In this document: positions 31,014 through 48,459 of the stretch, in pieces
Layout: each line of letters begins with the position of its first letter
How positions within the stretch are numbered: position 1 is the first letter of the stretch
Assembly: GCA_963555825.3 (NCBI GenBank)
Contig: CAUVXB020000001.1
Coordinates: forward strand, 1,184,001-1,248,000
Direction of reading: 5' to 3'
Source of the DNA: Alphaproteobacteria bacterium
GTDB lineage: Bacteria > Pseudomonadota > Alphaproteobacteria > JAAXGF01
Length of the DNA: 64,000 nucleotides
Made by a program: the position numbers and the translations under genes
The notes under the pieces: model-generated
Told to the model about the DNA's origin: nothing
The model's database searches: none
Seen by the model: only the letters and a program-made list of their open reading frames with translations

Positions 31014-32657
31014 ACCCGCATTTCCCAAGTATCGTCGATATTCAGTGCGGCGAGAAGGCGATTCTGCTATAAGAATCATGAAGTTGTAGCATACATGGAG
31101 CGGCGGATATGGCACACCCGATGGGTGAATCGAAACCGGGGTGCCTTCGGGTCGTTTTTGACCGTCGATTGAAGCTTGAATTCCACGGTTCCAAGATCAC
31201 CTCTGATGCCGGGTTGCTCGCCTACCGGGAGCTTGACGATGCCCTCGGCCTGACTGAGATGGCCGAGGGTGTTTTCCAGGATAGCCGTACCGGCAAGAAC
31301 GGATGGCACGGCATGACGGGTCAGTTTCGCCAGTCCGTTTTCGGGCGCCTTGGCGGCTATGACGATGTGAACGACGCCGACCGTCTGGGACGCGATCCCG
31401 CCATGCGCTGGATTGTTGGCGGCAAGGCCATCGAAAGACAGGCCGCTTCCACCAGCCAGATGGGACGCTTCGAGACGGAGCTATTGGCCACCGACGAGAA
31501 CGTTGAAGCCTTGGTCGACATGAACGGGGTGTGGATCGACAAGGTTCATGACCGCCATCCGCCGAAGATGATCATTCTCGACATGGACAGCAGCGTCAGC
31601 CCGACCCATGGCGAACAAGAGGGAACAGCGTACAATGGTCACTTCGGCTGTACCTGCTAGCATCCGCTATTCCTGTTCAACCAGTTCGGCGACTTGGAGA
31701 GATGTTCCCTGCGCCCCGGTAATGTTCACAGTGCCGACGGATGGCGGAATGTTCTGGAGCCGGTGGTGATGCGCTATAAGGAAAGGAAGGTGCGGCTGTA
31801 TTTTCGTGGCGATGCCGCCTTCGCCTCACCGGAGATATACGAATATCTCGAAGCCGAGGGATTACTCTACGTCATCCGCCTCAAAGCGAACGCGATTCTC
31901 CAGCGGAACATTGCCCATCTGCTTACGCGACCTGTCGGTCGCCCGCCCGACCATGTTCGCCGTTTCCACGCCAGCTTCAGCTATCAGGCCGGATCGTGGA
32001 ACAAGAAGCGCCGTGTCGTGGCCAAAGTGGAGTGGCACCCCGGCGAGCTGGTTCCTCGCGTCGGTTTCATCGTCACTAATCTGTCGCGCCCTACCAAGCG
32101 GGTGGTGGCGTTCTATAATCACCGTGGCACGGCGGAGCAGCACATCAAGGAAGGCAAGAACGCCATCAACTGGACCCGTCTGTCATGTCGCAAGTTCCGC
32201 AACAATGCCGTTCGGCTCCAGCTTCACGCCCTGGCCTACAATCTGGGCAACTTCATGAGGACACTGGCTTTGCCGAAGGAGGTGGAGCACTGGTCGATGA
32301 CGACGTTGCGCGACAAGCTGGTGAAGATCGGGGCCAAGGTTGTCCGACATGGCCGCTACGTTACGTTCCAATTGGCTGAGGTGGCGGTGCCGAGGGACCT
32401 GTTCCGGAAAATCCTGAGCTTGATTGATGATCTGCGACGAAGACCCGCTCCGGCGTAGGCCGAGGGAATCGACGGCGAGGAGAAAGCGACAGGAGAGGTG
32501 TGTCTGGATGGCGAGAAAAATGACCGAGTGGCCTTCCAAGCGCGGGCCGATTACCAAAATCATGCCATCGGATGGCTGCATAGGGGATACAGTTCCCTTG
32601 GCGGTGGGAAAGTGGTACGATTTCCACGAATTTGGATGGTATATGGGGAATGTCGGA
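31014..32657 (+). mobile_element. IS1380 family insertion sequence
   Basis: Imperfect IR ACCCGCATTTCCCA / TGGGGAATGTCGGA flanked by TAA(A). Confidence 0.85.
31109..32458 (+). pseudogene. IS1380 transposase with in-frame TAG at 31658-31660
   Basis: ITSDAGLL, LDMDSS and YNGHFGCTC*HPLF (Tyr expected), RGDAAF and YNHRGTAEQHIKEGK in the same frame. Confidence 0.88.
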
Positions 32658-33107: not shown

Positions 33108-36066
33108 GACGGGGCGGTAAAAAGTTGTTGGCCGATGGCGTGCTTGTACAGGTCTTTGCGGTTCGGTGAAGAATATTTGCCTGTCTCCGCGTTGCTGGTG
33201 GATAAAACCTGATATTACCTACCCTTGGCTTCTCCTTGGCTTCGTTTTTTATGGTGCGATTGCCGCGCAGCGTCGGATATTGAGGCCGAGGGCACGCAGA
33301 TTGACCACGTAGCGCATGGCCGGCATGCCGCGAATGCGTAGGTGAGCCAGGTTCATCTGGTACTTTAATCGCGACATGGTCGCTTCTATGCCGGCCCGCC
33401 ATCTGTAGACGTTGCGGAAGGCATCGCTTTGTTCATAAAGCCGGCGCTTTTGGTTGGCAGCCCTGGCCGGGGTATATTGAAAGCGGGAAAATTGGCCGTC
33501 ACGCTTGGCCGCCTGCACGGGACATCGCAGTATATCGGGACATTTTTGGCAGATGGAGAGGTCGAAACGGGCCTGCAGCTTGGCTTTGGCGAGCGAGGCT
33601 GAAACCGGTTCGACGTTATTGGGACAGCGCAAGACCAAGCCTTCTTCGTTGAGAGTGAAATCCTCCAACGTCAACCGTCCCGAGACGGCGCCTTTCGGCG
33701 GTCGTGCGGGCGCCACGAGATTGATGTTCTGTTCGCGCGTCAGAGCCATGTTGTCACTGGAACCGTAATGTGAATCACCCAGCATCACCGCCGGCGTCAG
33801 CGCGCGCTCGCTCAGATCATCCAGCGCATCGGCTAAGCGATGGCCGTCATGCACCGTCATCTTGTGGACCTCCACGTGGGTGATGAGGTCCGGTGTCGCG
33901 GCAACCGCCTCGTTACTGACATCTTCACAATAGGTTTCGACGATCTGCGCCATGTATCCTTGACCCTTGTGCGCGTTGTAGCTCGCGTCCGGGTCGGCCG
34001 GATTGCCGACGGTATCGCACGGCACATCCTTTGGATCTCGAATCGCGGCGCGCGTTGCGTCACGATCGCCATACTCATCATCAACGATCTCGAACTGATC
34101 GCGCAGAACCCTCTCCAGGATCGCAAAACTGAAAAGCTTTGCCGCCGCCGTGTCACGGAATTGCAGCACCAGGGCTAGGAGATACTGACCCGCTTCGCCG
34201 AGGCGCCGTTTTGAAACACTCGGCGCCGGGCGCGCCATTACCCTCGCGATCGACATAGCGGCGGATCACCTCCTTGCTGATCTGCTGTGCAGACCGGGAT
34301 GATATCGCTCAAGCTCACGGGCAAACTTCGAGATGCTCTCAACAACGATACCAAGTCGTGTCAGCGCCCGCATTGCCGAACGAAGGGCCGTCGAATCCAT
34401 GCGTTGCTGGTATCGACAGAGAACCCCTGCACCAGCCGATCCGTCAAACACCGGAACAGCAATTCATCGAGACCTTGTTCTTAAACAGGCGTGCGATAGT
34501 TGCGCACCCGAGCTGTCCGCTTCGCTGCGACGTCCAAGGCATAGTGCCACGCCATATTGAAGGCCAGGGCCTCGACGGTCTCTGCATCGCTCAGATCGTG
34601 CAGCTGGCAAAAGCAGACCCCGATGACAACGTGTAGATCCTTCGATGGTCGGCCCATGCGTTCATCAAGGCGGGTCGATCGTCAACCGGAAGTTCGACAA
34701 GCAGATGGTTCCGAAAAACCCCGGCCCAGGATTGCTCCATCAGGCGCCGACGTTTGTCCCCGAAATCGGACCAGCCAAACAATTCCAAGTCCGTGGCGCG
34801 TAAAGTAAACATGCACAATTATAATCCAGCCGACTCTCATGAGGAATCGACTTTTTACCGCCCCGGAATCTTGGATGGAGAATGAAGGCGGCGTATCCTG
34901 GCGTTGATGAAGACGCCAATTTTCCGAAGAAAGGGGCCATGAAAGACGACAGTTGTTGCGTTGCGCCAGCCAGAGGACGATCCGCTGACGGGATATTGCG
35001 CGCCGGCGCCCGGCAGTTGCTTGGCCAGGCGATTGAAGCGGAAGTTGCCGCCGAAGCCCATGCCGATTTGACCGACGCTTCGGGCCGGCGCCGATTGTGT
35101 CACGGGCACATGCCGGAACCGAGTTCAGACCGGGATCGGAGCTGTGACGGGAAGCCTCAAGAGTCGAGCCGATGGATCCAGCAGGCCACGGGTCGGGGCG
35201 TTTCACGTCATCGATCCTGCCGCCTTATGCTCAGGCGCGCCAAGTCGGTCGAGGCGCTTCTGCCCTGGCTTTATCGTGAAGGGCATCTCCAGCGGCGACT
35301 TTTCGGAGGCCCTGGCCCCGGCGCTCCGCTTGCCTCCAGCAGACCGGACGCGCCATGGCGGCTGACGGCCAGCACCATTGGCCGGCTGACCGCGGTCTGG
35401 TGCCCCGAATACATGGCAAAAGCGCGACCTTTCGGCTCGGCGCTACGTCTATTTTTGGGCCGACGGGGTCTAGTCTCGCGATCGGCAATCATCGGCGCCG
35501 ACGCCATGCTCGCAAGCCGGACATCGTCCACGCCCATGCCGTCGACGGCCAAGCTCGCGGGCGGAACTGCACGCTTGCGCGCCACCGCTTGGCCGGCCCC
35601 AGCTGCGGCGCCTTGGGCTTCTGGAAGCCGCTACGCTCGACGCCAGGGTGCAGCGTTGCTGGGATCTCAAGACCGCCAACGTGTTCAACCAGATGTCCCT
35701 GGCACCAATTTTTTTGGCCATCTGCACGACATCTGGATGGCCGACTCAGGGCCGACGCCGAAGCCGCCTTCGCCGAGGCGCCATTGCACGGCGCAAAATA
35801 CCACAAGGCCGCAGAGCGCCTGGTCAAGGACGGCGCTCGAGCTACGTCCCGGCCGAGCACTGGAAGCCGAGCCATCGACAAGAGCCACGTGCGCCTGAGC
35901 TTGAAGACCAAGGGGTGCCTGAAGGGCCGCAAGACGGCGCATCGCATGGTCAAACTGGATCGAGTGCCAGGCGGAAATGGCGGAATGATCAAATCAACTC
36001 GGAACTCGTAAGCAGTAGGTTCAAACACGCCGGCGATAGCTCCGTCACCAACTTTCAGACATAGCT
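33091..36066 (+). mobile_element. Degraded IS256 family element with IS1182 nested in its left IR
   Basis: GAGCTATAACCG...ATAGCT ends; transposase remnants (LRAGARQLLGQAIEAEV, RRAKSVEALLPWLY, LKTKGCL) at 34939-35990. Confidence 0.75.
33110..34865 (-). mobile_element. IS1182 family insertion sequence (frameshifted transposase)
   Basis: 16-bp perfect IR CGGGGCGGTAAAAAGT / ACTTTTTACCGCCCCG; DPDASY..KGQGY, GDSHYGS and YRWRAGIEATMS.LK in 33249-34256. Confidence 0.82.
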
Positions 36067-37155: not shown

Positions 37156-37587
37156 ATGGAACCATCGCTGTTGGACAAGCTGGTCACGGAAGTCCGGCGC
37201 TATCAGGACAAAGACTTCCTGAAGGCGGCGATGGCGGTCTGCGCGCTCGCCGCCAATGCGGACAACGAGGTCAATCTCTCGGAACGCTACAGCATCGATC
37301 GCGCGATCGAGACCGAACCCGCGCTCAATCTGTTCGACGCGACCAAGGCAGTCCGCATCCTCGACGACTACATCTTCGCGCTACGCGAGGAGGGCGACGC
37401 GGCGAAGGCGGTGCTCGACAACAAGGTGCGGCGCTTCGCCGGCACTCATAAACGCTCGCGCACGTTGATGCGCGTCGCCTATCTGATCATCGCCGCGGAT
37501 CAGGAAATTGTCGCCGCCGAACGCGCGGAGTTCGACCGCCTCTGCGGCCTCCTCGACCTCGACCATACCCAGGTCTGGCCGGGCTAG
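37156..37587 (+). CDS. TerB family tellurite resistance protein
   Basis: FLKAAMAVCALAANAD.V..SE and IIAADQEIVAAE...LCGLLDL repeats. Confidence 0.8.
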   Translation: MEPSLLDKLVTEVRRYQDKDFLKAAMAVCALAANADNEVNLSERYSIDRAIETEPALNLFDATKAVRILDDYIFALREEGDAAKAVLDNKVRRFAGTHKRSRTLMRVAYLIIAADQEIVAAERAEFDRLCGLLDLDHTQVWPG

Positions 37588-40608: not shown

Positions 40609-41115
40609 ATGTTGCGCGATCGTTATCTCGAGGCCATGAGCGAGGCCGCCGCGACCGTCTCGGTGGTCACCACCGACGGCCCCGCGGGCCGCGCCGGGGT
40701 CACCGTCAGCGCGATGTGCTCGGTCTCGGCCGATCCGCCGACGATCCTGGTCTGCGTCCACCACCTGAGCCCGGCCTGCGAAGCGATCCGCGAGAACGGC
40801 GCCTTCTGCGTCAACGTCCTTGGCGACGGACAGTCGGCCATCTCGGACACCTTCGCCGGGCGCGCGCCGACGCCGGGCGGCGACAAGTTCGCCTGCGCCG
40901 AATGGCGCGCGCTCGCCACCGGCGCGCCGGCGCTCGACGACCCGCTGGTTGCGCTCGACTGCCGGCTCGTCGAGCACCTGCGCCAGGGATCGCATTACGT
41001 CTTCATCGGCGAGGTCGCCGACATCGCGCTCGGCGACGGCGCGCCGCTGGTCTACGCCAAGCGCGCCTACCGAGGCCTCGGCCTGCCGCTCGAGGCGCTG
41101 CCGCAGGCGGCGTAG
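40609..41115 (+). CDS. Flavin reductase (HpaC-like)
   Basis: VSVVTTDG, SVSADPP, FCVNVL and GSHYVFIGEV motifs. Confidence 0.92.
   Translation: MLRDRYLEAMSEAAATVSVVTTDGPAGRAGVTVSAMCSVSADPPTILVCVHHLSPACEAIRENGAFCVNVLGDGQSAISDTFAGRAPTPGGDKFACAEWRALATGAPALDDPLVALDCRLVEHLRQGSHYVFIGEVADIALGDGAPLVYAKRAYRGLGLPLEALPQAA
40966..41115 (+). repeat. 150-bp direct repeat, left boundary of island (3' end of flavin reductase gene)
   Basis: Matches 48091-48240 with five third-position differences. Confidence 0.95.
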
Positions 41116-41183
41116 GCCGCGGCGTGACGACGTGACGGCGCTCGACTGCGTTCATCCCGTCATGAGGAAACATCCACCCATAA

Positions 41184-42653
41184 CAGCCCGTTGACGAAGT
41201 CTTCCCTGGACGAAGTCGGCATGGTCTGATTCTCTGGTGTCCTGGCCTGAAGGGGGGTTCGCTGATGGCGATGGGACAGCAGAAGGATCGTCAGGGGGAC
41301 TTGATGGTGAGCTGGTCGGAGATGCCGCGCTCGCCAGGTCATGTATTTTACGACCGCCTGCAGTTGGTACTGATCGAGGGCGGCTTCGACGGCTTCGCCG
41401 AGGCGGTCTGCCAGCCCTATTACGCGGCCAGGATGGGGGCGCCTTCGGTGCCACCCGGGCGCTACTTCCGTATGCACCTGGTGGGCTACTTCGAGGGTAT
41501 CGACTCTGAGCGTGGGCTGGAGTGGCGGTGCTCGGATTCCCTGTCGCTACGGGAGTTCCTGCTGTTGGAGAGGCGGGAACGGGTGCCGGACCATTCCTGG
41601 CTGTCACGGACCCGCGCGCGCCTGCCCCATGAAGTCCACACGGCGGTGTTTGACTGGGTCCTGGCGCTGATCGCCGAGGCGGGTCTGGTGAAGGGCGAGC
41701 GCATCGGGGTGGATGCCTCGACCATGGAGGCCAACGCGGCGCTGCGCAACATCGTGCGGAGGGACACGGGCGAGGGTTACCGGGGGATGCTGGAGCGCTT
41801 GGCCCAGGAGAGCGGTATCGAGACACCCACGGCTGAGGACCTGGCGCGTCTGGACCGCAAGCGCAAGGGCAAGAAGCTCTCGAACCAGGACTGGGTTTCC
41901 AGGAGCGACCCCGAGGCCAAGATCGCCAAGATGAAGGACGGCACCACGCACCTGGCCTACAAGCCCGAGCACGCGGTGGATCTGGACACCGGCGCGGTGG
42001 TGGCGGCGGAGCTGCACCCGGCCGACGAGGGCGATACGACAACGCTTCCCAAGACCCTGGCGGCGGCCGAGGCAAACCTCGAGGCGGTGGATGTGGCGCC
42101 GACGGCCGAAGATCCGGCCGAATGTGTGACCGATAAGAGCTACCACTCACGGTTGGTCTTGAAGGCGCTCGACGACGGCCCCTGGAAGAGCCGGATCTCC
42201 GAGCCCAAGCAGAAGGGTTTTGCGCGCTGGCACGGAGATGATGCGGCTCGCCGGGCGGTCACCAACAACCGGACCCGGCTGTTATCGGGGGTGGCCAGGG
42301 AAGCCTTCAAGCTGCGCGCCGAGATCGTCGAGCGCTCCTTTGCCCACAACCTCGATCGCGGCGGTATGCGCCGGACCTGGCTTCGGGGCCGCGAGAACGT
42401 GCACAAGCGATACCTGCTTCACGTCGCCGGCCACAACCTATCGTTGCTGATGCGCCAACTCATCGGCGCCGGCACCCCGAAGGAGGCCGTGGCGGGCGGA
42501 ATTGGCGCCTTGTTCGTGCTTGTTACGCCCGCTGGAGCCGTCCTGGTCGTTCAGATCGTCCTCATCGTCTCGGAGGATGGCGAAACCGCCTTCGCCGCGA
42601 TATGCTTCGCCGTGGCGTGAAACCCGGTCAATGACGCCTTTTTCAACGGGCGG
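41184..42653 (+). mobile_element. IS1182 family insertion sequence, intact transposase 41265-42620
   Basis: IR CAGCCCGTTGA / TCAACGGGCGG; ATAA duplication; VPDHSWLSR, GVDASTMEANA and VERSFAH motifs. Confidence 0.88.
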
Positions 42654-42917
42654 ATAACTCGATCGGCAATTGCCGACGAGCTGCCAAATCAAAAGCCGGA
42701 AGCGCCGATGGCGTGTCGCGGGTTCGGTTACGATGCTCGCTTCTAGTCATCACCGGTTACGTTTCCGTTCATGCACTCGAATGTGCCACCACCGCGAATC
42801 CGATATGCTGCCACAAATTCAAACGCTTGAGCACGTCAGGTGAAAATCCCAGGTAGACGAATTTTGTAGAAATTGGTTGGAAATTATTTTAATGACTTAC
42901 GTTGGCGTTGGTGGGGG

Positions 42918-44339
42918 TGTATCGCACCCGGTTCCTTGGACACAAGTTTGTCTCATGCGGCGGGCCTGAGTGACATCGCGGTGTGCCACGCCTGACGAGC
43001 TTGAGCGGGGCTCAGGTAGCCGTTCTTCTCCACGATCCACTGGGCATTGTACTGTTCGACGAACCCGCGGACGGCGTTCCGCAGCTCCGCGATGTTGCGG
43101 TAGATGCGGCCATGGATGATCTGTTCCTTGAGCGTGCGATTGAACCTCTCGGCGACGCCGTTGGTCTGGGGCTGTTCGACGAAGGCGTAGGACGGCTGGA
43201 TGCCCCAGAACTTGATCTGGTTGGTGAAGTGGTCCGACAGATACTGGGAGCCGTGATCCATCCGCAAGGCCAGCCCCCGCGCCGCACCGGCGGAGGTCGA
43301 GGCATACAGCCTCGCAAGCCCCATGGAGATCGGCTGAAGGGCGGCGAAGCGGTCGCCTCGCTTGCACACATGCCAGCCGACGCACTCGGCGTTCCAATGC
43401 TCGATGGCGGTGAATATCCAGCCCCAGCCGTCGTCCACCGTGAACACCCGAACGCCGTCCGTGCCCCACATGAGGTTGGGGGCATGGGTGATGATCTCAC
43501 CGACATGGGGATTTCCGCCACGGCGGCGGCAGCGATGGGGCGAGAGCAGGTTGTTCTCGCGCATCACCCGGAGCCCCCGCTTGCGGGAAACACGGATGCC
43601 ACGACAGACCCGAAGCCGAGCCCAGACCTTGCGGTGTGTCCCTCGCCCTCCCAGGGGGATGCCTCCAGGTCGGCCTCGATGGCCACCAGCAGAGCCTCGT
43701 CCGAGATCGAGGGCTTCGGTCCCCGGCGCTTTGCTGGTGGGCGCTCAGCGGTGGCCTGCTGCCGGGATTTCATGGCGTAGAACGAGGAACGGGCAAAACC
43801 CCAGGCCGCACAGACCCGCTGGAGGCCGTAGGCCAAACCCGTGCCGGGAGAGGTGGCGGCACTCATCGCCGCGACCTCCGCCGCCCCAAAGGGCCGGACG
43901 TCTCCGTCTTGGCCTCCAGCAGTTCCACCTGCATGATCAACTCCCCGATCCGCTTCATGGCGATGTCCAGTTCCGCCTTCACCGGATCGCCCTTGCGTTC
44001 CTTGAGCGAGGCATCGATCCCGGCGATCGCCTTCTCACGCCACTGCTCGAGCCGGAAAATCTCCACGCCCAACTGCCGCGACAAAAGTTCCACCGGCTCG
44101 CCACGCAAAAGCCGCAGGGCAACCTCACGCTTGCGCGTCACCGTCCACCGCTGGCCAAGTCCCAGAGGGCCTGCCGGCGAAACCTGGCCCGGGGAAAACG
44201 TGGACGAGCCAAGCTCGCCCTCGTTTACCACAGGCCCATCAACAGCAACTTTGTTCTCAAAATTGTCGGTCATGTTCCGGTCCTCCTTGGACACTTCGAT
44301 TAAGCCAATTCTGTGTCCAAGGAAATCGGGTCCGACTCA
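42918..44339 (-). mobile_element. IS3/IS481-like insertion sequence (orfA 43863-44273; frameshifted orfB 42953-43866)
   Basis: TG...CA ends with ~28-bp IR; WGTD, DHGSQY and NGVAERFNRTLKEQ motifs; 14-bp flanking duplication. Confidence 0.88.
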
Positions 44340-44386
44340 GGCGTTGGTGGGGGAACAGGAATTTCACAATTCCTGGGTGCAGCATT

Positions 44387-45301
44387 ATGAGCAAGACGAT
44401 CGTAGCTTCCGACCTCAATCGAGTCGATCCTGTCTACAACGGTCTAGATCTATTTTGGCAGGCAATTTCGTCGAAAGAATCGGTGTTTTGTGTCTGCACT
44501 GCGGCGCGCGATTTTCACGTTGGCTGGAAGGATGCTCTCGAAGTTCTTACCCGCGCGTCACATCGCGACGGAACACACGTAATAAAAAAGACAGACGACA
44601 ATGAAGAAAAAACGCTTTTTATCCCAAAAGACATCAAAAATCACCGACGTTTTACTTTGAAAGTACAAGAACTATATAAAAATACACTTGATGATGTTTA
44701 TTTACTTTTTCACTCTTTTAATCCGCATTATGTAAGGGGGATGCGGCTGAGCGATCTTCCTGGTGGGCCCCATAGACGGTTCATATTTGGGTTTCAAAAA
44801 TTGAGGCACACGGGTATCTTACCTTCAACTACAGGCAATTCTGTATTTAATCACCAAGGGATGATGTTGCTAATGAGAAGATGCTTCCCGACCGATGACA
44901 TGCTCCTGAACTACATTGCGGATCCACATTCATAGAGAGTTGAAGCGACCGAATCCGATGATCTTGACCAAATTTCAGAGTCAATCTTTAGATTAGCCGC
45001 GAAGAAGAGAGCTGCTACAGAAGCAATCATTTTGGATGGATGCCTCGGTTACAAGATACTAACCGCTATCTCCGAATTGGAAGTGCCTACACGCAAAGAT
45101 ATCCTTAAGAAATTGAGCTATCCCAATACCGAGATGCCGCGCTTGAATGACGCGATCGATCGGCTCGAGAGTGTAGGATTTTCACGTCAACGCCGTGGTA
45201 GTCATTTCGCTACAAATAACGGTCGAGACGTTGTCGAGAAAATTCAGCATTATGTAGATAACTGGCCAGACAAAACGGACATGATTGGGGGAGAAGAATG
45301 A
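44387..45301 (+). pseudogene. Low-GC hypothetical protein with C-terminal winged-helix domain; one in-frame TAG at 44933-44935
   Basis: 44387-44935 and 45032-45301 share one frame with no other stop; KILTAI...TRKDILKKL...LNDAIDRLESVGF...FATNNGRDVV resembles a wHTH. Confidence 0.7.
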
Positions 45302-45324
45302 GATGTCGATGGACAATCGGATAG

Positions 45325-46660
45325 CACTAGTGTCCGGTTAAAAATCGAATAAATTCAATTGGTTGGTTATTTGCGAAGCGTTGCATCTGTTTTCGTCTCC
45401 CGCAAGTGCTTGATGTATGGGCATTTTCTCGAAGAGGGTCACCGAGAGGATCTGTAACAAAGTGTAGAGCGAGGCGTCCAGGTCGAGGCGCTTCTTGACG
45501 ATGGCGACGAGGACGTAGACCGAGACGGCAATCCAGATCTGCGTCTTCACCGCGTTCTCCGACGTGCCGTAGAACTGCTTGATCCGAAGATGCTGCTTGA
45601 TCCACTTGAAGAAGAGTTCCACCTGCCAGCGGCTTTTGTAGAGCGCGCAGATGGTGGCGGCCGGAAGCGAGAAGTTGTTGGTGATGAAGACCAGCGAATC
45701 TGTCGAAGACCCGCGCGAACCTTGCCGGACTCGGGGTCCTTGAAGCGGATGCGCCGCAGAAGTTCGGGGTAATCCTGACGGGTGTAGAAGCCGTCCAGGG
45801 AGATGGTCTGGTCGCAAATGATGCCGGTCGAGCGATCCGTCGGCGCCGAATAGACGCGATGAGCATCGATGTTCGACTTGGCACGCGTGACGAAGAAGGC
45901 CCCGGCTTGGTGCAACACATAAAGGCGGGCAAAGTCGACGTAGCCACGATCCACGACGTAGATGGCTCCGGCTTCCGGCAAGAGCATATCGAGGGCATGA
46001 ACGTCGTGCAGCTTGCCATCCGAGATGTGGATAAAACTCGGAATGTTGCCCCGCAGGTCGAGCAGCGTGTGCATCTTCACCGCCGCCTTGGTGGTGCGGA
46101 AGTGCGCCCACGGAAAGACCGACAGGCACAGAGCGATGGTCGTCGAGTCCAGGGCGTAGACGGTATTGGTCAGGTCCAACCCCAGTTCTTCGTCGACGTA
46201 CAGCGTCCTCGCCTGGGTGATGAGCCGCTGGGCCAACGCCGCATGGATACGCCAGTCGCGCCTTTCGTTGGCATCGGCCAGCGTCGAGCGCCGGACCGGC
46301 TGGCGGAAGTCCATGTGATAGAGTTTCGATGCGTGGACCGAGAGGCAGGTCTCGATGTCGCGCAGGCTTTCCCGGTAGGTCAGCTGGGCGAAGGCCATGG
46401 ACCGGTATTGCTCGGCGCAGGAAAGCGTCCGGACCCGGTGATCGCCGCCATACCGGTCGACGATCCGCGTGAAAGTAGTCCATGGCAGGAAGTCCATGAG
46501 CTGAGCGAACAGGGTCTTGCCGGTGTTCATGAGCATCTCCTCGGAGAAACTCCGAAAAGTGCTCCATCCAATTCAAATCGACACCATGCATTTTCGCTTC
46601 AAACCCCGCAGAAATCCTGGCTCTCAAAGCCAGCACCGCTCAGTTAACCGGACAGCAGTG
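45325..46660 (-). mobile_element. IS4 family insertion sequence (transposase 45338-46530, frameshifted near 45700)
   Basis: IR CACTAGTGTCCGGTTAA / TTAACCGGACAGCAGTG; 9-bp TSD ATCGGATAG; LDSTTI, DRGY and YKSRWQVELFFKWIKQ motifs. Confidence 0.92.
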
Positions 46661-46789
46661 ATCGGATAGATAAATTAAATCAAATTGTATATTCACAACC
46701 AGTTATTGTGCTAGTTTATGGAAGCTCCAGTGACGATAAAAAACATTATTTGAAGAGAGAAAAAATTAAAGGAGAGTTGAAGAATAGAT

Positions 46790-47544
46790 CTTGCCTATCC
46801 GGTTATCACCCACACCCACTATATGTAGTGTGTCTCCTTGGACTGCAGGCAAGGGCCGGCGCAGGCGCATTGAGGAGGCGATCCGGCTAATTCTTGATTG
46901 TTCTGAAAACCGAACCGGAGTTTAATTCACGTCACGTACTTAACATCGGGGGACGGAACGGTGGCGACCAAGGGAAAAACGAAGAAACCCACGGCCAGAC
47001 GGGAAGCTGCTGATGAAACGACATCGTCTGAGCGATTGACGGCACTAGTCGAAGAAAGCGACGCGCTGGCACGAATCGTTGCGAAGAACCCGTCCGCGCC
47101 TGTTAGTCTCCTGCGCGTTTTGAGTCGCAGCGAAGACGAAGCGACACGCAAGAACGTGATCCTCAATCCGTTTACTCCATATGACGTATTGAGCGAACTT
47201 GAAAACCAGTTCACAGAGCTATTTGTGAATAATCCGGCACTCGAATCCTACAATTCAATGAAGCTCTGATTTCCTGGAATATTCCATCGGTGTCGTTCAC
47301 CTCCGATTTCAGATAAATTTCAATGAAGTGACGGTCCTTTATGCAACGTGGCGTTTTGCCAAATCCGACTCAATGATTAGGATTTCCACCACGCTAAAGT
47401 GTCGCCTAAAAGCCGCTACAATGCCGTCCGAGTCCCTGCTCGGCATCGCCGGAGATATCTCCGCTTCGACCTGCACCGAGCTTTACTCAGGAAAATGGGT
47501 GCACACTACATATAGTGGGTGTGGGTGATAACCGGATAGGCAAG
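46790..47544. mobile_element. 755-bp non-autonomous element with 43-bp perfect TIRs and a passenger gene (probably IS1595-derived)
   Basis: CTTGCCTATCCGGTTATCACCCACACCCACTATATGTAGTGTG at 46790-46832 and its reverse complement at 47502-47544; 8-bp TSD GAATAGAT. Confidence 0.88.
46961..47269 (+). CDS. Leucine-rich-variant/HEAT-like repeat protein (passenger; possibly truncated)
   Basis: VAKNPSAPVSLLRVL and VILNPFTPYDVLSEL repeats; GGGGA RBS before GTG. Confidence 0.6.
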   Translation: MATKGKTKKPTARREAADETTSSERLTALVEESDALARIVAKNPSAPVSLLRVLSRSEDEATRKNVILNPFTPYDVLSELENQFTELFVNNPALESYNSMKL

Positions 47545-48090
47545 GAATAGATATCCAAATGGGAAAATTTATTTTAGCGAAGACTCCGAACTGGACGAGT
47601 ATTGTAAGTATAAAATACAAGGATTCGAGCATTTCTCTATCCCTGACAAAGAAGTCGTTCATTTAATGTTGTGTCATTTGTGTATTGTGCTTGATGTTTC
47701 TAAGGGACCAGGCGAAGAAATTATTTTGATGTTCGCCAAGCAACTTGGACACAAGCTGTTCGTGTTGACACATGAGAAGTTTATAGACGAGAATACATTT
47801 CCAGGATCGGTGCGGAAGAATCTCGATCAAGAATTTTTTACTGACGCAGAATCTGACAGTTGCAGTCTTGTGGATCGGGCCCTAGCCCGGGTCTACAAAA
47901 TCGCGGCTGATCAGGCAGGCATTTCGTAGGTTTGCGGAAAATTCCTGGCACAGTTGAATTCCGGGCGGTTGAATCGGTTCGTCGAATGCCCATACCCGGC
48001 ATCAGAATGGGTGAGTCGTCAACCCATGCAAGTACAACTTCGATAGCCAGGCCTGAGATTGGCAAGTCGCCCAACGTGCAGGATGGCGAA

Positions 48091-48240
48091 CTCGTCGAGC
48101 ACCTGCGCCAGGGCTCGCATTACGTCTTCATCGGCGAGGTCGCCGACATCGCGCTCGGCGACGGCGCACCGCTGGTCTACGCCAAGCGCGCCTACCGAGG
48201 CCTCGGCCTGCCGCTGGAGGCGCTGCCACAGGCGGCGTAA
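48091..48240 (+). repeat. 150-bp direct repeat, right boundary of island
   Basis: Second copy of the flavin reductase 3' end. Confidence 0.95.
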
Positions 48241-48459
48241 CGCGGCGCGCACGCCAAATCGAGTTGATTGCTCGAGCGCGCCGAGGCAAAGCGCCCGCCA
48301 TAAATTGGTTGGCCAGGGCCGCCAAACGCCGTATCAAAGGTGACGAGCGCGGACGGCGCCGGTGGCGCCTATCGCGCTCGCGCGCTTTTTCACGCCGATC
48401 CTAGGGGCAGTCCGGGCTTCGCTTGATGGACGCAACGATTCTCCCCATGCAACGCCACC

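Follow-up and report, generated by a model that had tools for sequence, protein, structure and literature searches.

A decayed two-gene cassette pairing a winged-helix protein with a stand-alone relative of the type II retron effector enzyme

The effector of type II retrons, RcaT, consists of a domain resembling nucleoside 2-deoxyribosyltransferase (NDT) and a DNA-binding domain. The preprint describing it gives F28/E85/E107 as the catalytic triad of Sen2 RcaT, reports that E107Q abolishes toxicity, that toxicity depends on oligomers and that RcaT auto-ADP-ribosylates with nicotinamide adenine dinucleotide (NAD+), and presents type II retrons as the most abundant retron family and the target of RcaT as unsettled (bioRxiv 10.64898/2026.10.13.758329). 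In type II-A2 retrons, as described by Mestre et al. 2020 (PMC7736814), the NDT-like domain is separate from the winged-helix DNA-binding domain, and the latter is fused to the reverse transcriptase (RT). Here we describe a cassette of two genes at positions 44387-47929 of a 64,000-nucleotide stretch of DNA from an Alphaproteobacteria bacterium (NCBI GenBank assembly GCA_963555825.3, contig CAUVXB020000001.1, positions 1,184,001 to 1,248,000 of the forward strand). The whole of this stretch is called the window below, and positions are those of the window. The upstream gene, gene A, encodes a protein with a C-terminal winged-helix domain. The downstream gene, gene B, encodes a stand-alone NDT-like enzyme of 172 residues, which belongs to a small family distantly related to the catalytic domain of RcaT i.e. 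of the Ec86/Eco1 effector. Both genes are dead in the window.

Reconstruction and identity of the enzyme

Gene B lies in three pieces, separated by two inserted elements.

44387-45301, plus strand: gene A, a pseudogene of 304 codons
45303-45324, plus strand: gene B, first piece, from the start codon to the IS4 insertion site
45325-46660, minus strand: IS4-type insertion sequence of 1336 bp with a frame-split transposase
46670-46789, plus strand: gene B, middle piece, with the first strand and its Gly and the KR..KI helix
46790-47544, plus strand: non-autonomous element of 755 bp with perfect 43-nt terminal inverted repeats
47553-47929, plus strand: gene B, last piece, with the FSED motif, the catalytic segment, the C-terminal helix and the stop codon
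47717-47719, plus strand: GAA codon for the second Glu of SKGPGEE, residue 103 of the reconstructed protein

The ATG of gene B is at 45303, one base after the TGA that terminates gene A (45299-45301). The coding sequence is interrupted after 22 bases by the 1336-bp element, which we take to be of the IS4 type, and 120 bases further on by the 755-bp element. Both elements are flanked by target duplications, of 9 bp for the IS4-type element (ATCGGATAG, at 45316-45324 and 46661-46669) and of 8 bp for the 755-bp element (GAATAGAT, at 46782-46789 and 47545-47552). When the two elements were excised in silico by a script using their coordinates, the three pieces joined into 519 nt, or 172 codons with zero stops. 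The product matched a 170-position family profile, built without the rows of the window, as a single domain over positions 1-163 (192.5 bits, E 2.4e-61), compared with 7.1 bits for the best of 200 shuffles, and the reconstruction is therefore correct. A first-pass annotation, made from the sequence of the window by itself, had noted that removing the two elements yields an open frame of 172 codons, starting 1 nt after a 304-codon gene with a single TAG, and the coordinates confirm both statements. Judged from its sequence, gene B was probably functional before the insertions.

Relatives of the enzyme were found by an exhaustive HMMER search with the 127-residue C-terminal piece as query, which gave 41 cluster representatives at E<=1e-3; at the stricter E<=1e-10, 22 remained. 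Most of the representatives (29/41) are 163-186 residues long and the query starts at about their residue 47, as would be expected if the C-terminal piece misses 45 residues. The family alignment comprised 30 of the 41 representatives (11 short or odd-length rows were left out) and the two window pieces, 32 rows in total. In it the 42-residue middle piece aligns on the N-terminal strand and helix of the family, both window pieces are in register, and all 8 near-invariant columns are retained in them. A 44-row alignment has five invariant residues, G25, E57, G95, E99 and R131, of which E99 is the Glu at the catalytic position, encoded in the window by the GAA codon at 47717-47719. Other searches for gene B were negative: a word-index protein search returned zero relatives, a scan of viral_contigs found no relative, and gene B was absent, by the query used, from 12 other members of the window's taxonomic family, several of whose genomes are incomplete. 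The only match in genome_contigs (L001, Haemophilus paracuniculus) was a chance short-peptide match inside a CoaBC-type frame and was discarded.

The family profile was compared with all PDB sequences. Four sequences were matched at E<=10. The top two were the Ec86/Eco1 effector, whose residues 27-135 were matched at E 3e-7, and its E106A form at 1.4e-5. The profile alignment places the second Glu of the GxxEE motif on Eco1 E106, the family Trp (Tyr in the window) on Eco1 F33, and the Glu of the ExxHL motif on E84. By their PDB titles, entry 8qbl is a filament with inactive effector (E106A) and 8qbk is the ADP-ribosylated effector. Retron Eco1 reportedly forms filaments that hydrolyse NAD+.

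Structure comparison was made with an AlphaFold model of a homolog (P0006, modelled with the 32-row alignment), which was a single domain with a predicted local distance difference test score (pLDDT) of 94.4. Among the nine Foldseek matches at E<=1e-3 the Eco1 effector was at ranks 1, 2 and 8. Structures of DNPH1, NDT and CMP N-glycosidase were matched by Foldseek at E 3e-4 to 4e-3. The Eco1 effector was also the top-ranked match in VIA (8qbk_E, Z 12.4, root mean square deviation 3.7 A, 146 aligned residues), where the other matches included DNPH1, NDT and CMP N-glycosidases at Z 10-11 and CheY-like receiver domains at Z about 10. The modelled fold of the enzyme is thus NDT/TIR flavodoxin-like. 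The PADLOC model NDT_II-A gave weak matches in 7 of 12 homologs at E<=0.1 (best 1.4e-6), and Pfam Nuc_deoxyrib_tr (PF05014) matched none of the window's pieces and 1 of the 32 alignment rows, at E 0.041. The reconstructed enzyme has no fused C-terminal DNA-binding domain. Taken together, the profile, Foldseek and VIA matches bear out the NDT fold that had been proposed for gene B from motifs, and along with the weak NDT_II-A matches they uphold the proposed homology to retron effectors such as that of Ec86 and RcaT; the Glu of SKGPGEE that had been singled out as catalytic aligns with Eco1 E106 and is invariant in the family. ESM Atlas leads, with winged-helix regulators for gene A (0.87-0.88) and NDT and TIR proteins for gene B (0.82-0.86), were weak and were set aside.

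The winged-helix partner and the search for a reverse transcriptase

We examined the gene context of the enzyme's relatives in 34 metagenome loci. In nearly all of them a gene on the same strand ends 15-30 nt before the enzyme gene. The proteins encoded by these upstream genes are one family with a common C-terminal module i.e. a helix with the pattern EA..NR.L....DWLG followed by a winged helix. Searched with a profile of this module, 32 of the 34 loci have a module frame directly upstream on the same strand; the two exceptions are L021, with only 52 nt of upstream sequence, and L041, where a truncated enzyme gene directly follows a sigma-type frame. As some loci supplied rows to the module profile, the upstream test is circular for those loci; the loci outside the profile rows are L017, L018, L022, L023, L032, L033, L038 and L044. 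Two pairs of loci are near-duplicates (L024/L025 and L039/L040).

Gene A encodes a member of this upstream family over its C-terminal part. It consists of an orphan N-terminal part (residues 1-183) and a family-specific winged-helix domain (residues 184-292), and the latter was matched to the profile of the upstream proteins with an hhalign probability of 94% (E 1.3e-7). Using phmmer, gene A matched 13 of 23 upstream proteins at E<0.01, and none of 17 sigma-type proteins below 0.2; comparison with a sigma profile likewise gave no match (hhalign probability 0.06%). The co-occurrence of a winged helix-turn-helix protein with the enzyme, proposed by the first-pass annotation from the window's single pair, therefore extends to the relatives. 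When the partner profile was compared with PDB sequences, only generic matches of the MarR/ArsR type were found, and none of them gave a specific link to the DNA-binding domain of the retron effector.

A complex was predicted for the upstream protein and the enzyme of one relative (L028). The score was 0.81, and the best of three controls scored 0.02. In a benchmark this mark was reached by 116 of 157 solved complexes and by 2 of 215 mismatched pairs, counts which hold only roughly here as the prediction used its own alignments. The L028 runs share at least 48% of contacts, and the pLDDT of the partner is at least 73. On the partner side the predicted interface comprises residues 131-161 and 214-224, including the invariant residues R143, L149 and W154, and on the enzyme side the N-terminal helix, residues 105-110 and 129-135 and the C-terminal helix. 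The prediction supports binding between partner and enzyme in this relative's pair.

The sequence of gene A in the window was compared with contigs of four sequencing runs (X5, X8, X10 and X13) and with a database protein, P0004, which has 321 residues, is 97% identical to gene A and has Leu at the position of the TAG.

44356-44375, 12 nt before the ATG of gene A: perfect 8+8 palindrome CAGGAATT-TCAC-AATTCCTG
44669-44677, plus strand: two small deletions, of 2 bases and of 1 base, in A-runs of gene A, relative to other strains
44933-44935, plus strand: codon 183 of gene A, TAG here and TTG (Leu) in runs X8, X10 and X13 and in P0004 (44934 A>T)
44936-45262, plus strand: coding region of the winged-helix domain of gene A, with homology to the partner proteins of the related loci
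45041-45043, plus strand: TGC (Cys) at the family's invariant Trp, in the DWLG motif

The TAG is the sole in-frame stop of gene A. The Cys codon at 45041-45043 is TGG (Trp) in X8, X10, X13 and P0004 (45043 C>G), and the equivalent residue of the relative's partner, Trp154, is predicted to lie within the interface with the enzyme. The A-run deletions were read from the run contigs and from a comparison of P0004 with a second protein, P0005; combined, they keep the frame of gene A and rewrite four of its codons, and run X5 has only the 2-base loss.

In the structure model of P0004 only residues from about 190 to 295 were confident, with pLDDT >90 over about 200-290, and this part is a winged helix whose best matches are of the MarR/ArsR type (E 2.7e-3 and weaker). 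Over residues 1-78 and 80-189 the pLDDT was <50. Word-index protein searches with the whole of gene A found only P0004, at 97% identity, and the window's own piece, and searches with residues 1-185 alone found the same two. A match of residues 13-60 to SAMD9 (E 0.63) was not significant. The palindrome upstream of gene A may be an operator for the winged-helix protein or may mark the ends of the original cassette; one of its arms recurs as AAATTCCTG at 47939-47947, 3' of the stop codon of gene B.

The cassette had been proposed to work without an RT. Pfam scans found no RT among 24 frames of the window (6 + 18) or among 77 frames of the related loci, and the four RVT_1 matches in the genome are all on another contig. 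None of the 123 flanking frames of at least 170 residues in 32 related loci (counted with the duplicates L025 and L040 dropped and the three operon genes excluded) matched a PADLOC RT model at E<=1e-5. Rfam gave nothing relevant on 41000-48400, only a chance microRNA match. In support of the proposal, the searches of these frames and of the contig thus turned up no RT, either around the cassette or beside its relatives.

The island and the order of the lesions

The cassette lies in an island of about 7.1 kb, which is bracketed by two copies of a 149-nt direct repeat (97% alike, spacing 7125) and contains the cassette and three insertion sequences.

40966-41114, plus strand: left copy of the 149-nt repeat and left island edge, the 3' end of a complete flavin-reductase gene
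42953-44339, minus strand: IS3-type insertion sequence with rve, rve_3 and rve_2 integrase-core frames (42953 is not a mapped element end)
48091-48239, plus strand: right copy of the 149-nt repeat and right island edge, within a 5'-truncated flavin-reductase fragment

The repeats resemble a scar left by integration of an element at the 3' end of the flavin-reductase gene; no integrase remains. GC content is 0.44 in gene A and 0.39 in gene B against 0.65 in the window; together with the repeat bracket, this confirms that both genes are low in GC and sit inside an island, as had been noted before. The flavin-reductase gene that the left copy completes is intact and adjoins a gene for an HpaB-type oxygenase. 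A TerB-domain frame is also present in the window (37156-37587).

The stretch containing the cassette was present in 20 run rows from 8 studies, including sponge metagenomes, and no RNA run was among those listed for it. In the contigs of X5, X8 and X13 position 45315 is joined directly to 46661. The 1345 skipped bases equal the 1336-bp element and one 9-base duplication, so these runs have an exact empty site for the IS4-type element. The X5 contig continues into the 755-bp element, and a low-depth contig of X10 bridges the site of that element without it. There are two extra A after 44669 in X8 and X13, and one extra A after 44677 in X5, X8 and X10 and in one of the two contig forms of X13. 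In X5, X10 and X13 the match between the listed contigs and the window begins at 44340, and the contigs extend beyond it by 282-369 letters on that side, indicating that the IS3-type element is absent there.

As X5 has the TAG, the Cys codon, the 2-base loss and the 755-bp element, and lacks the IS4 and IS3 insertions, the lesions fall into two steps. The first lesions are the 2-base loss, the TAG, the Cys change and the 755-bp element, common to X5 and the window. The later ones are the IS4 and IS3 insertions and the frame-restoring 1-base loss, found in the window's strain only. Separately, the P0004 record reads on through the stop of gene A and no longer agrees with the window beyond codon six of gene B; in that record, too, gene B may be interrupted or absent, near the spot of the IS4 insertion.

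The first-pass annotation had taken the several hits on this small cassette to mean that a costly module was being inactivated. That explanation is not needed, as the genome is rich in active insertion sequences and neutral decay fits equally well; we put the chance that the lesions are neutral, rather than the result of selection against a costly module, at about even. The elements involved are common in the genome. The IS4-type element has terminal inverted repeats of 17 nt (88% complementary) and a transposase with DUF4372 and DDE_Tnp_1 domains, and is present in two further copies, which are 98% alike and 1313 bp long compared with 1336 bp here; because the coding sequence of its transposase is split over two frames, the copy inside gene B is itself decayed. 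The 755-bp element has a frame of 102 residues (46961-47269) with a Leucine-Rich-Repeat-Variant domain (LRV_2, E 1.6e-8), and the genome has seven copies that are full-length or nearly so (this one included), most of them identical, and an eighth that has been split in two by an insertion; the other copies are loci L003-L010. Its ends (32-43 nt; 125 nt at one end, with 77% identity) are common to about a dozen elements of roughly 1.1 kb, which on sequence grounds are probably its autonomous partner, and the 755-bp element and the elements with the same ends together give 85 genome matches. Five transposase frames lie in the window (31109-32458, 33249-34256, 41265-42620, 42953-44294 and 45338-46536), and at least four transposase-bearing elements besides the IS4-type one occur within 15 kb, one of which (DDE_Tnp_1_4) is split into two frames. 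The stepwise accumulation seen in X5 also fits neutral decay. However, the series is dense: 1.4 kb of coding sequence has six or more separate lesions within it or next to it, both genes are affected, and one lesion alters a residue that is invariant at the predicted interface.

Possible roles and comparison with known systems

We regard the cassette as a dead, horizontally acquired, RT-free two-gene module resembling RcaT, with a possible role as a toxin and its neutraliser or in defence. Its identity and anatomy are very likely to be as described above; the toxin-neutraliser or defence role, taken by itself, is tentative and falls somewhat short of an even chance; and for the statement as a whole the balance tips slightly in favour. 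In this proposal the terminal helices of the enzyme would dock on the DWLG helix of the partner and on the last helix of its winged-helix domain. The partner would thereby hold or direct an enzyme that may cleave the N-glycosidic bond of NAD+ or a nucleotide, or ADP-ribosylate a target, as its retron homologs do; depletion of NAD or nucleotides is inferred here by analogy. The variable N-terminal part of the partner would set what the pair couples to: in most relatives an anti-sigma-like head beside a gene for an extracytoplasmic function (ECF) sigma factor, in two relatives the sigma factor itself, fused to the module, and in the window the orphan domain of 183 residues. The mobile version without a sigma gene would most likely be a toxin-neutraliser or defence-like pair.

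A number of observations on the two proteins themselves weigh against this proposal. No Pfam, NCBIfam or PADLOC match above the curated threshold was found for gene A or for the window's pieces of gene B. In the VIA comparison the TIR domain of MAL reached Z 12.3, nearly equal to the 12.4 of the retron effector; structure alone cannot separate NDT from TIR, so the tie to the retron effector rests on the sequence profile. The Glu at the position of Eco1 E84, which the window's protein has, is less than 90% conserved in the 44-row alignment. The N-terminal 183 residues of gene A are without a relative and without a confident fold, and the proposal therefore accounts for only half of gene A. The predicted complex is that of a relative's pair (L028) rather than of the window's A and B proteins, and toxicity, substrate, binding, neutralisation and phage defence are all points that we infer.

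The gene neighbourhood of the relatives adds to this side, and it is the basis of an alternative in which the enzyme family would assist ECF sigma factors in signalling instead of acting in conflict. According to this explanation a flavodoxin-fold sensor or anti-anti-sigma protein binds the winged-helix tail of an anti-sigma-like protein or of a sigma factor and tunes transcription in response to a ligand derived from a nucleotide or NAD; the window's copy would then be a stray, decayed derivative. The second gene upstream of the enzyme encodes an ECF-type sigma factor of about 190 residues, and 13 of 16 such proteins match TIGR02937 (sigma70-ECF) at E<=1e-3. A sigma-type gene is present in 21 of the 34 loci, and in 20 of the 25 that have at least 1400 nt of upstream sequence. 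Two loci, L031 and L042, encode the sigma factor and the winged-helix module as one fused protein (300 and 313 residues; Sigma70_ECF E 4e-49 and 5e-44). The N-terminal part of the usual partner gave weak zf-HC2 anti-sigma matches in 3 of 21 cases (best E 0.0036), and the matches of the enzyme model to CheY-like receiver domains would suit a sensor. The relatives are often flanked by housekeeping genes (TsaD, RsmD-like, RNA methyltransferase, ComEC, pantothenate kinase, GcpE and RecG). No PADLOC system was found beside the related loci, and the PADLOC matches in their flanks are generic i.e. a RecG-type helicase, methyltransferases, radical SAM proteins, a sigma-54 activator, TPR/HEAT repeats and one E2-like frame. 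Operons with sigma genes, housekeeping flanks and the lack of a PADLOC system together suggest regulation rather than conflict.

Other features of the family are difficult to reconcile with signalling. The invariant Glu at the catalytic position of the retron effector, together with the invariant E57 and R131, suggests chemistry and not binding alone. The assignment of the partner as an anti-sigma protein is weak. There is no sigma gene in the window's version, where no sigma frame was found among the Pfam-scanned frames of the island, nor in L018, L022 and L032, which have a minimal winged-helix frame only, nor in L035 and L036, which have a different, unknown upstream gene. In the window one end of the IS3-type element adjoins the cassette and interrupts the sequence 47 nt upstream of gene A, which may once have been preceded by another gene. 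The window's cassette is, moreover, mobile and low in GC. On balance we consider signalling an unlikely explanation of the family, and yet a serious competitor.

These findings also bear on what the first-pass annotation had claimed about function. Its designation of the cassette as a candidate defence or toxin-antitoxin module is not supported by these data: PADLOC recognises no system, 20 of the 25 assessable loci add an ECF sigma gene, and many flanks are housekeeping. It had suggested a search for intact homologous pairs and for a defence-island context; pairs were found in 32 of the 34 loci, and many of the loci lie between housekeeping genes and not in defence islands. Some neighbours of the kind found in conflict systems were seen i.e. 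an Mrr-type nuclease frame (L015, 1298-2296), an RHS-repeat protein (L032, 5130-9536) and an E2-like frame (L041, 4878-5417), and in L039 and L040 (6628-9877) a CHAT-domain protease is found beside an unknown neighbour of 314 residues.

It is very improbable that gene B is an ordinary nucleotide-salvage enzyme (a nucleoside 2-deoxyribosyltransferase or DNPH1-like hydrolase) with gene A as its transcriptional regulator. In favour of this, the enzyme model resembles DNPH1, NDT and CMP N-glycosidases (VIA Z 10-11, Foldseek E 3e-4 to 4e-3), and the partner domain is of the MarR/ArsR type. Against it, Nuc_deoxyrib_tr matches just one alignment row, and the retron effector is the only protein with a significant link by sequence. 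The predicted contact of the partner is with the enzyme protein itself, and the two genes are tightly coupled, with spacers of 1 nt here and 15-30 nt in the relatives.

Returning to the RcaT-like module, the heads of the partner vary while the winged-helix module and the enzyme persist, and these two thus form the constant core; the head of gene A matches nothing else found. This core may, as a more speculative possibility than the toxin-neutraliser or defence role, represent an undescribed RT-independent system, in which the module that multicopy single-stranded DNA (msDNA) controls in retrons would be checked or aimed by an adaptor with exchangeable heads (anti-sigma-like, ECF sigma or orphan). 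In its commonest form an enzyme that cleaves NAD+ or nucleotides would be linked to an alternative sigma factor. The system could be ancestral to the type II retron effector, as a free-living module, or derived from it. A natural two-protein, RT-free relative would be a simpler system in which to study the action of the catalytic domain and its restraint by the winged helix, and the pair may show how retrons acquired their effectors. If the link to ECF sigma factors is real, it would be a new wiring of a nucleotide- or NAD-directed enzyme to transcription. The window's copy is dead; it is of value because it points to the family and records the inactivating steps as a dated series.

Among known systems, ECF sigma/anti-sigma pairs have the same gene order as most relatives (sigma, anti-sigma-like, third gene), including the fusion in two of them, and differ in that the window has no sigma gene and the relatives' partner is only weakly assigned as anti-sigma. 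In the paper that re-classified ECF sigma factors (PMC7826278), the main text does not mention winged, MarR, deoxyribosyl or TIR. TIR NADases and the DNPH1/NDT N-glycosidases have the flavodoxin-like fold in common with the enzyme, with a catalytic Glu after the fourth strand and Z 10-12, whereas they show no significant sequence match and have another partner and operon. No description of a winged-helix adaptor with a stand-alone RcaT-like enzyme was found in the literature searched, largely by titles and abstracts; the supplements of the ECF and retron classification papers could also bear on this.

The closest known system is RcaT (Ec86/Eco1, St85/Sen2), which has a homologous NDT-like catalytic domain with its catalytic Glu at the equivalent position (Eco1 E106); the window's protein also aligns an aromatic residue (Tyr) with Eco1 F33 and a Glu with E84, the putative counterparts of Sen2 F28 and E85, of which the Glu is less than 90% conserved in the family, and like RcaT the gene B enzyme is predicted to work together with a winged-helix module. 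In contrast to RcaT, the enzyme has only 172 residues, its winged helix is on a separate upstream protein that is generic MarR/ArsR by sequence, most relatives carry an ECF sigma gene, and neither an RT nor an msr/msd RNA was found. Type II-A2 retrons, as described, are a natural precedent for splitting the two domains; however, they are still retrons, whereas here a separate protein with different N-terminal parts carries the winged-helix domain, and no RT was found. The cassette is a new form of the type II retron effector, split in two, free of an RT and paired with a winged-helix adaptor dedicated to it.

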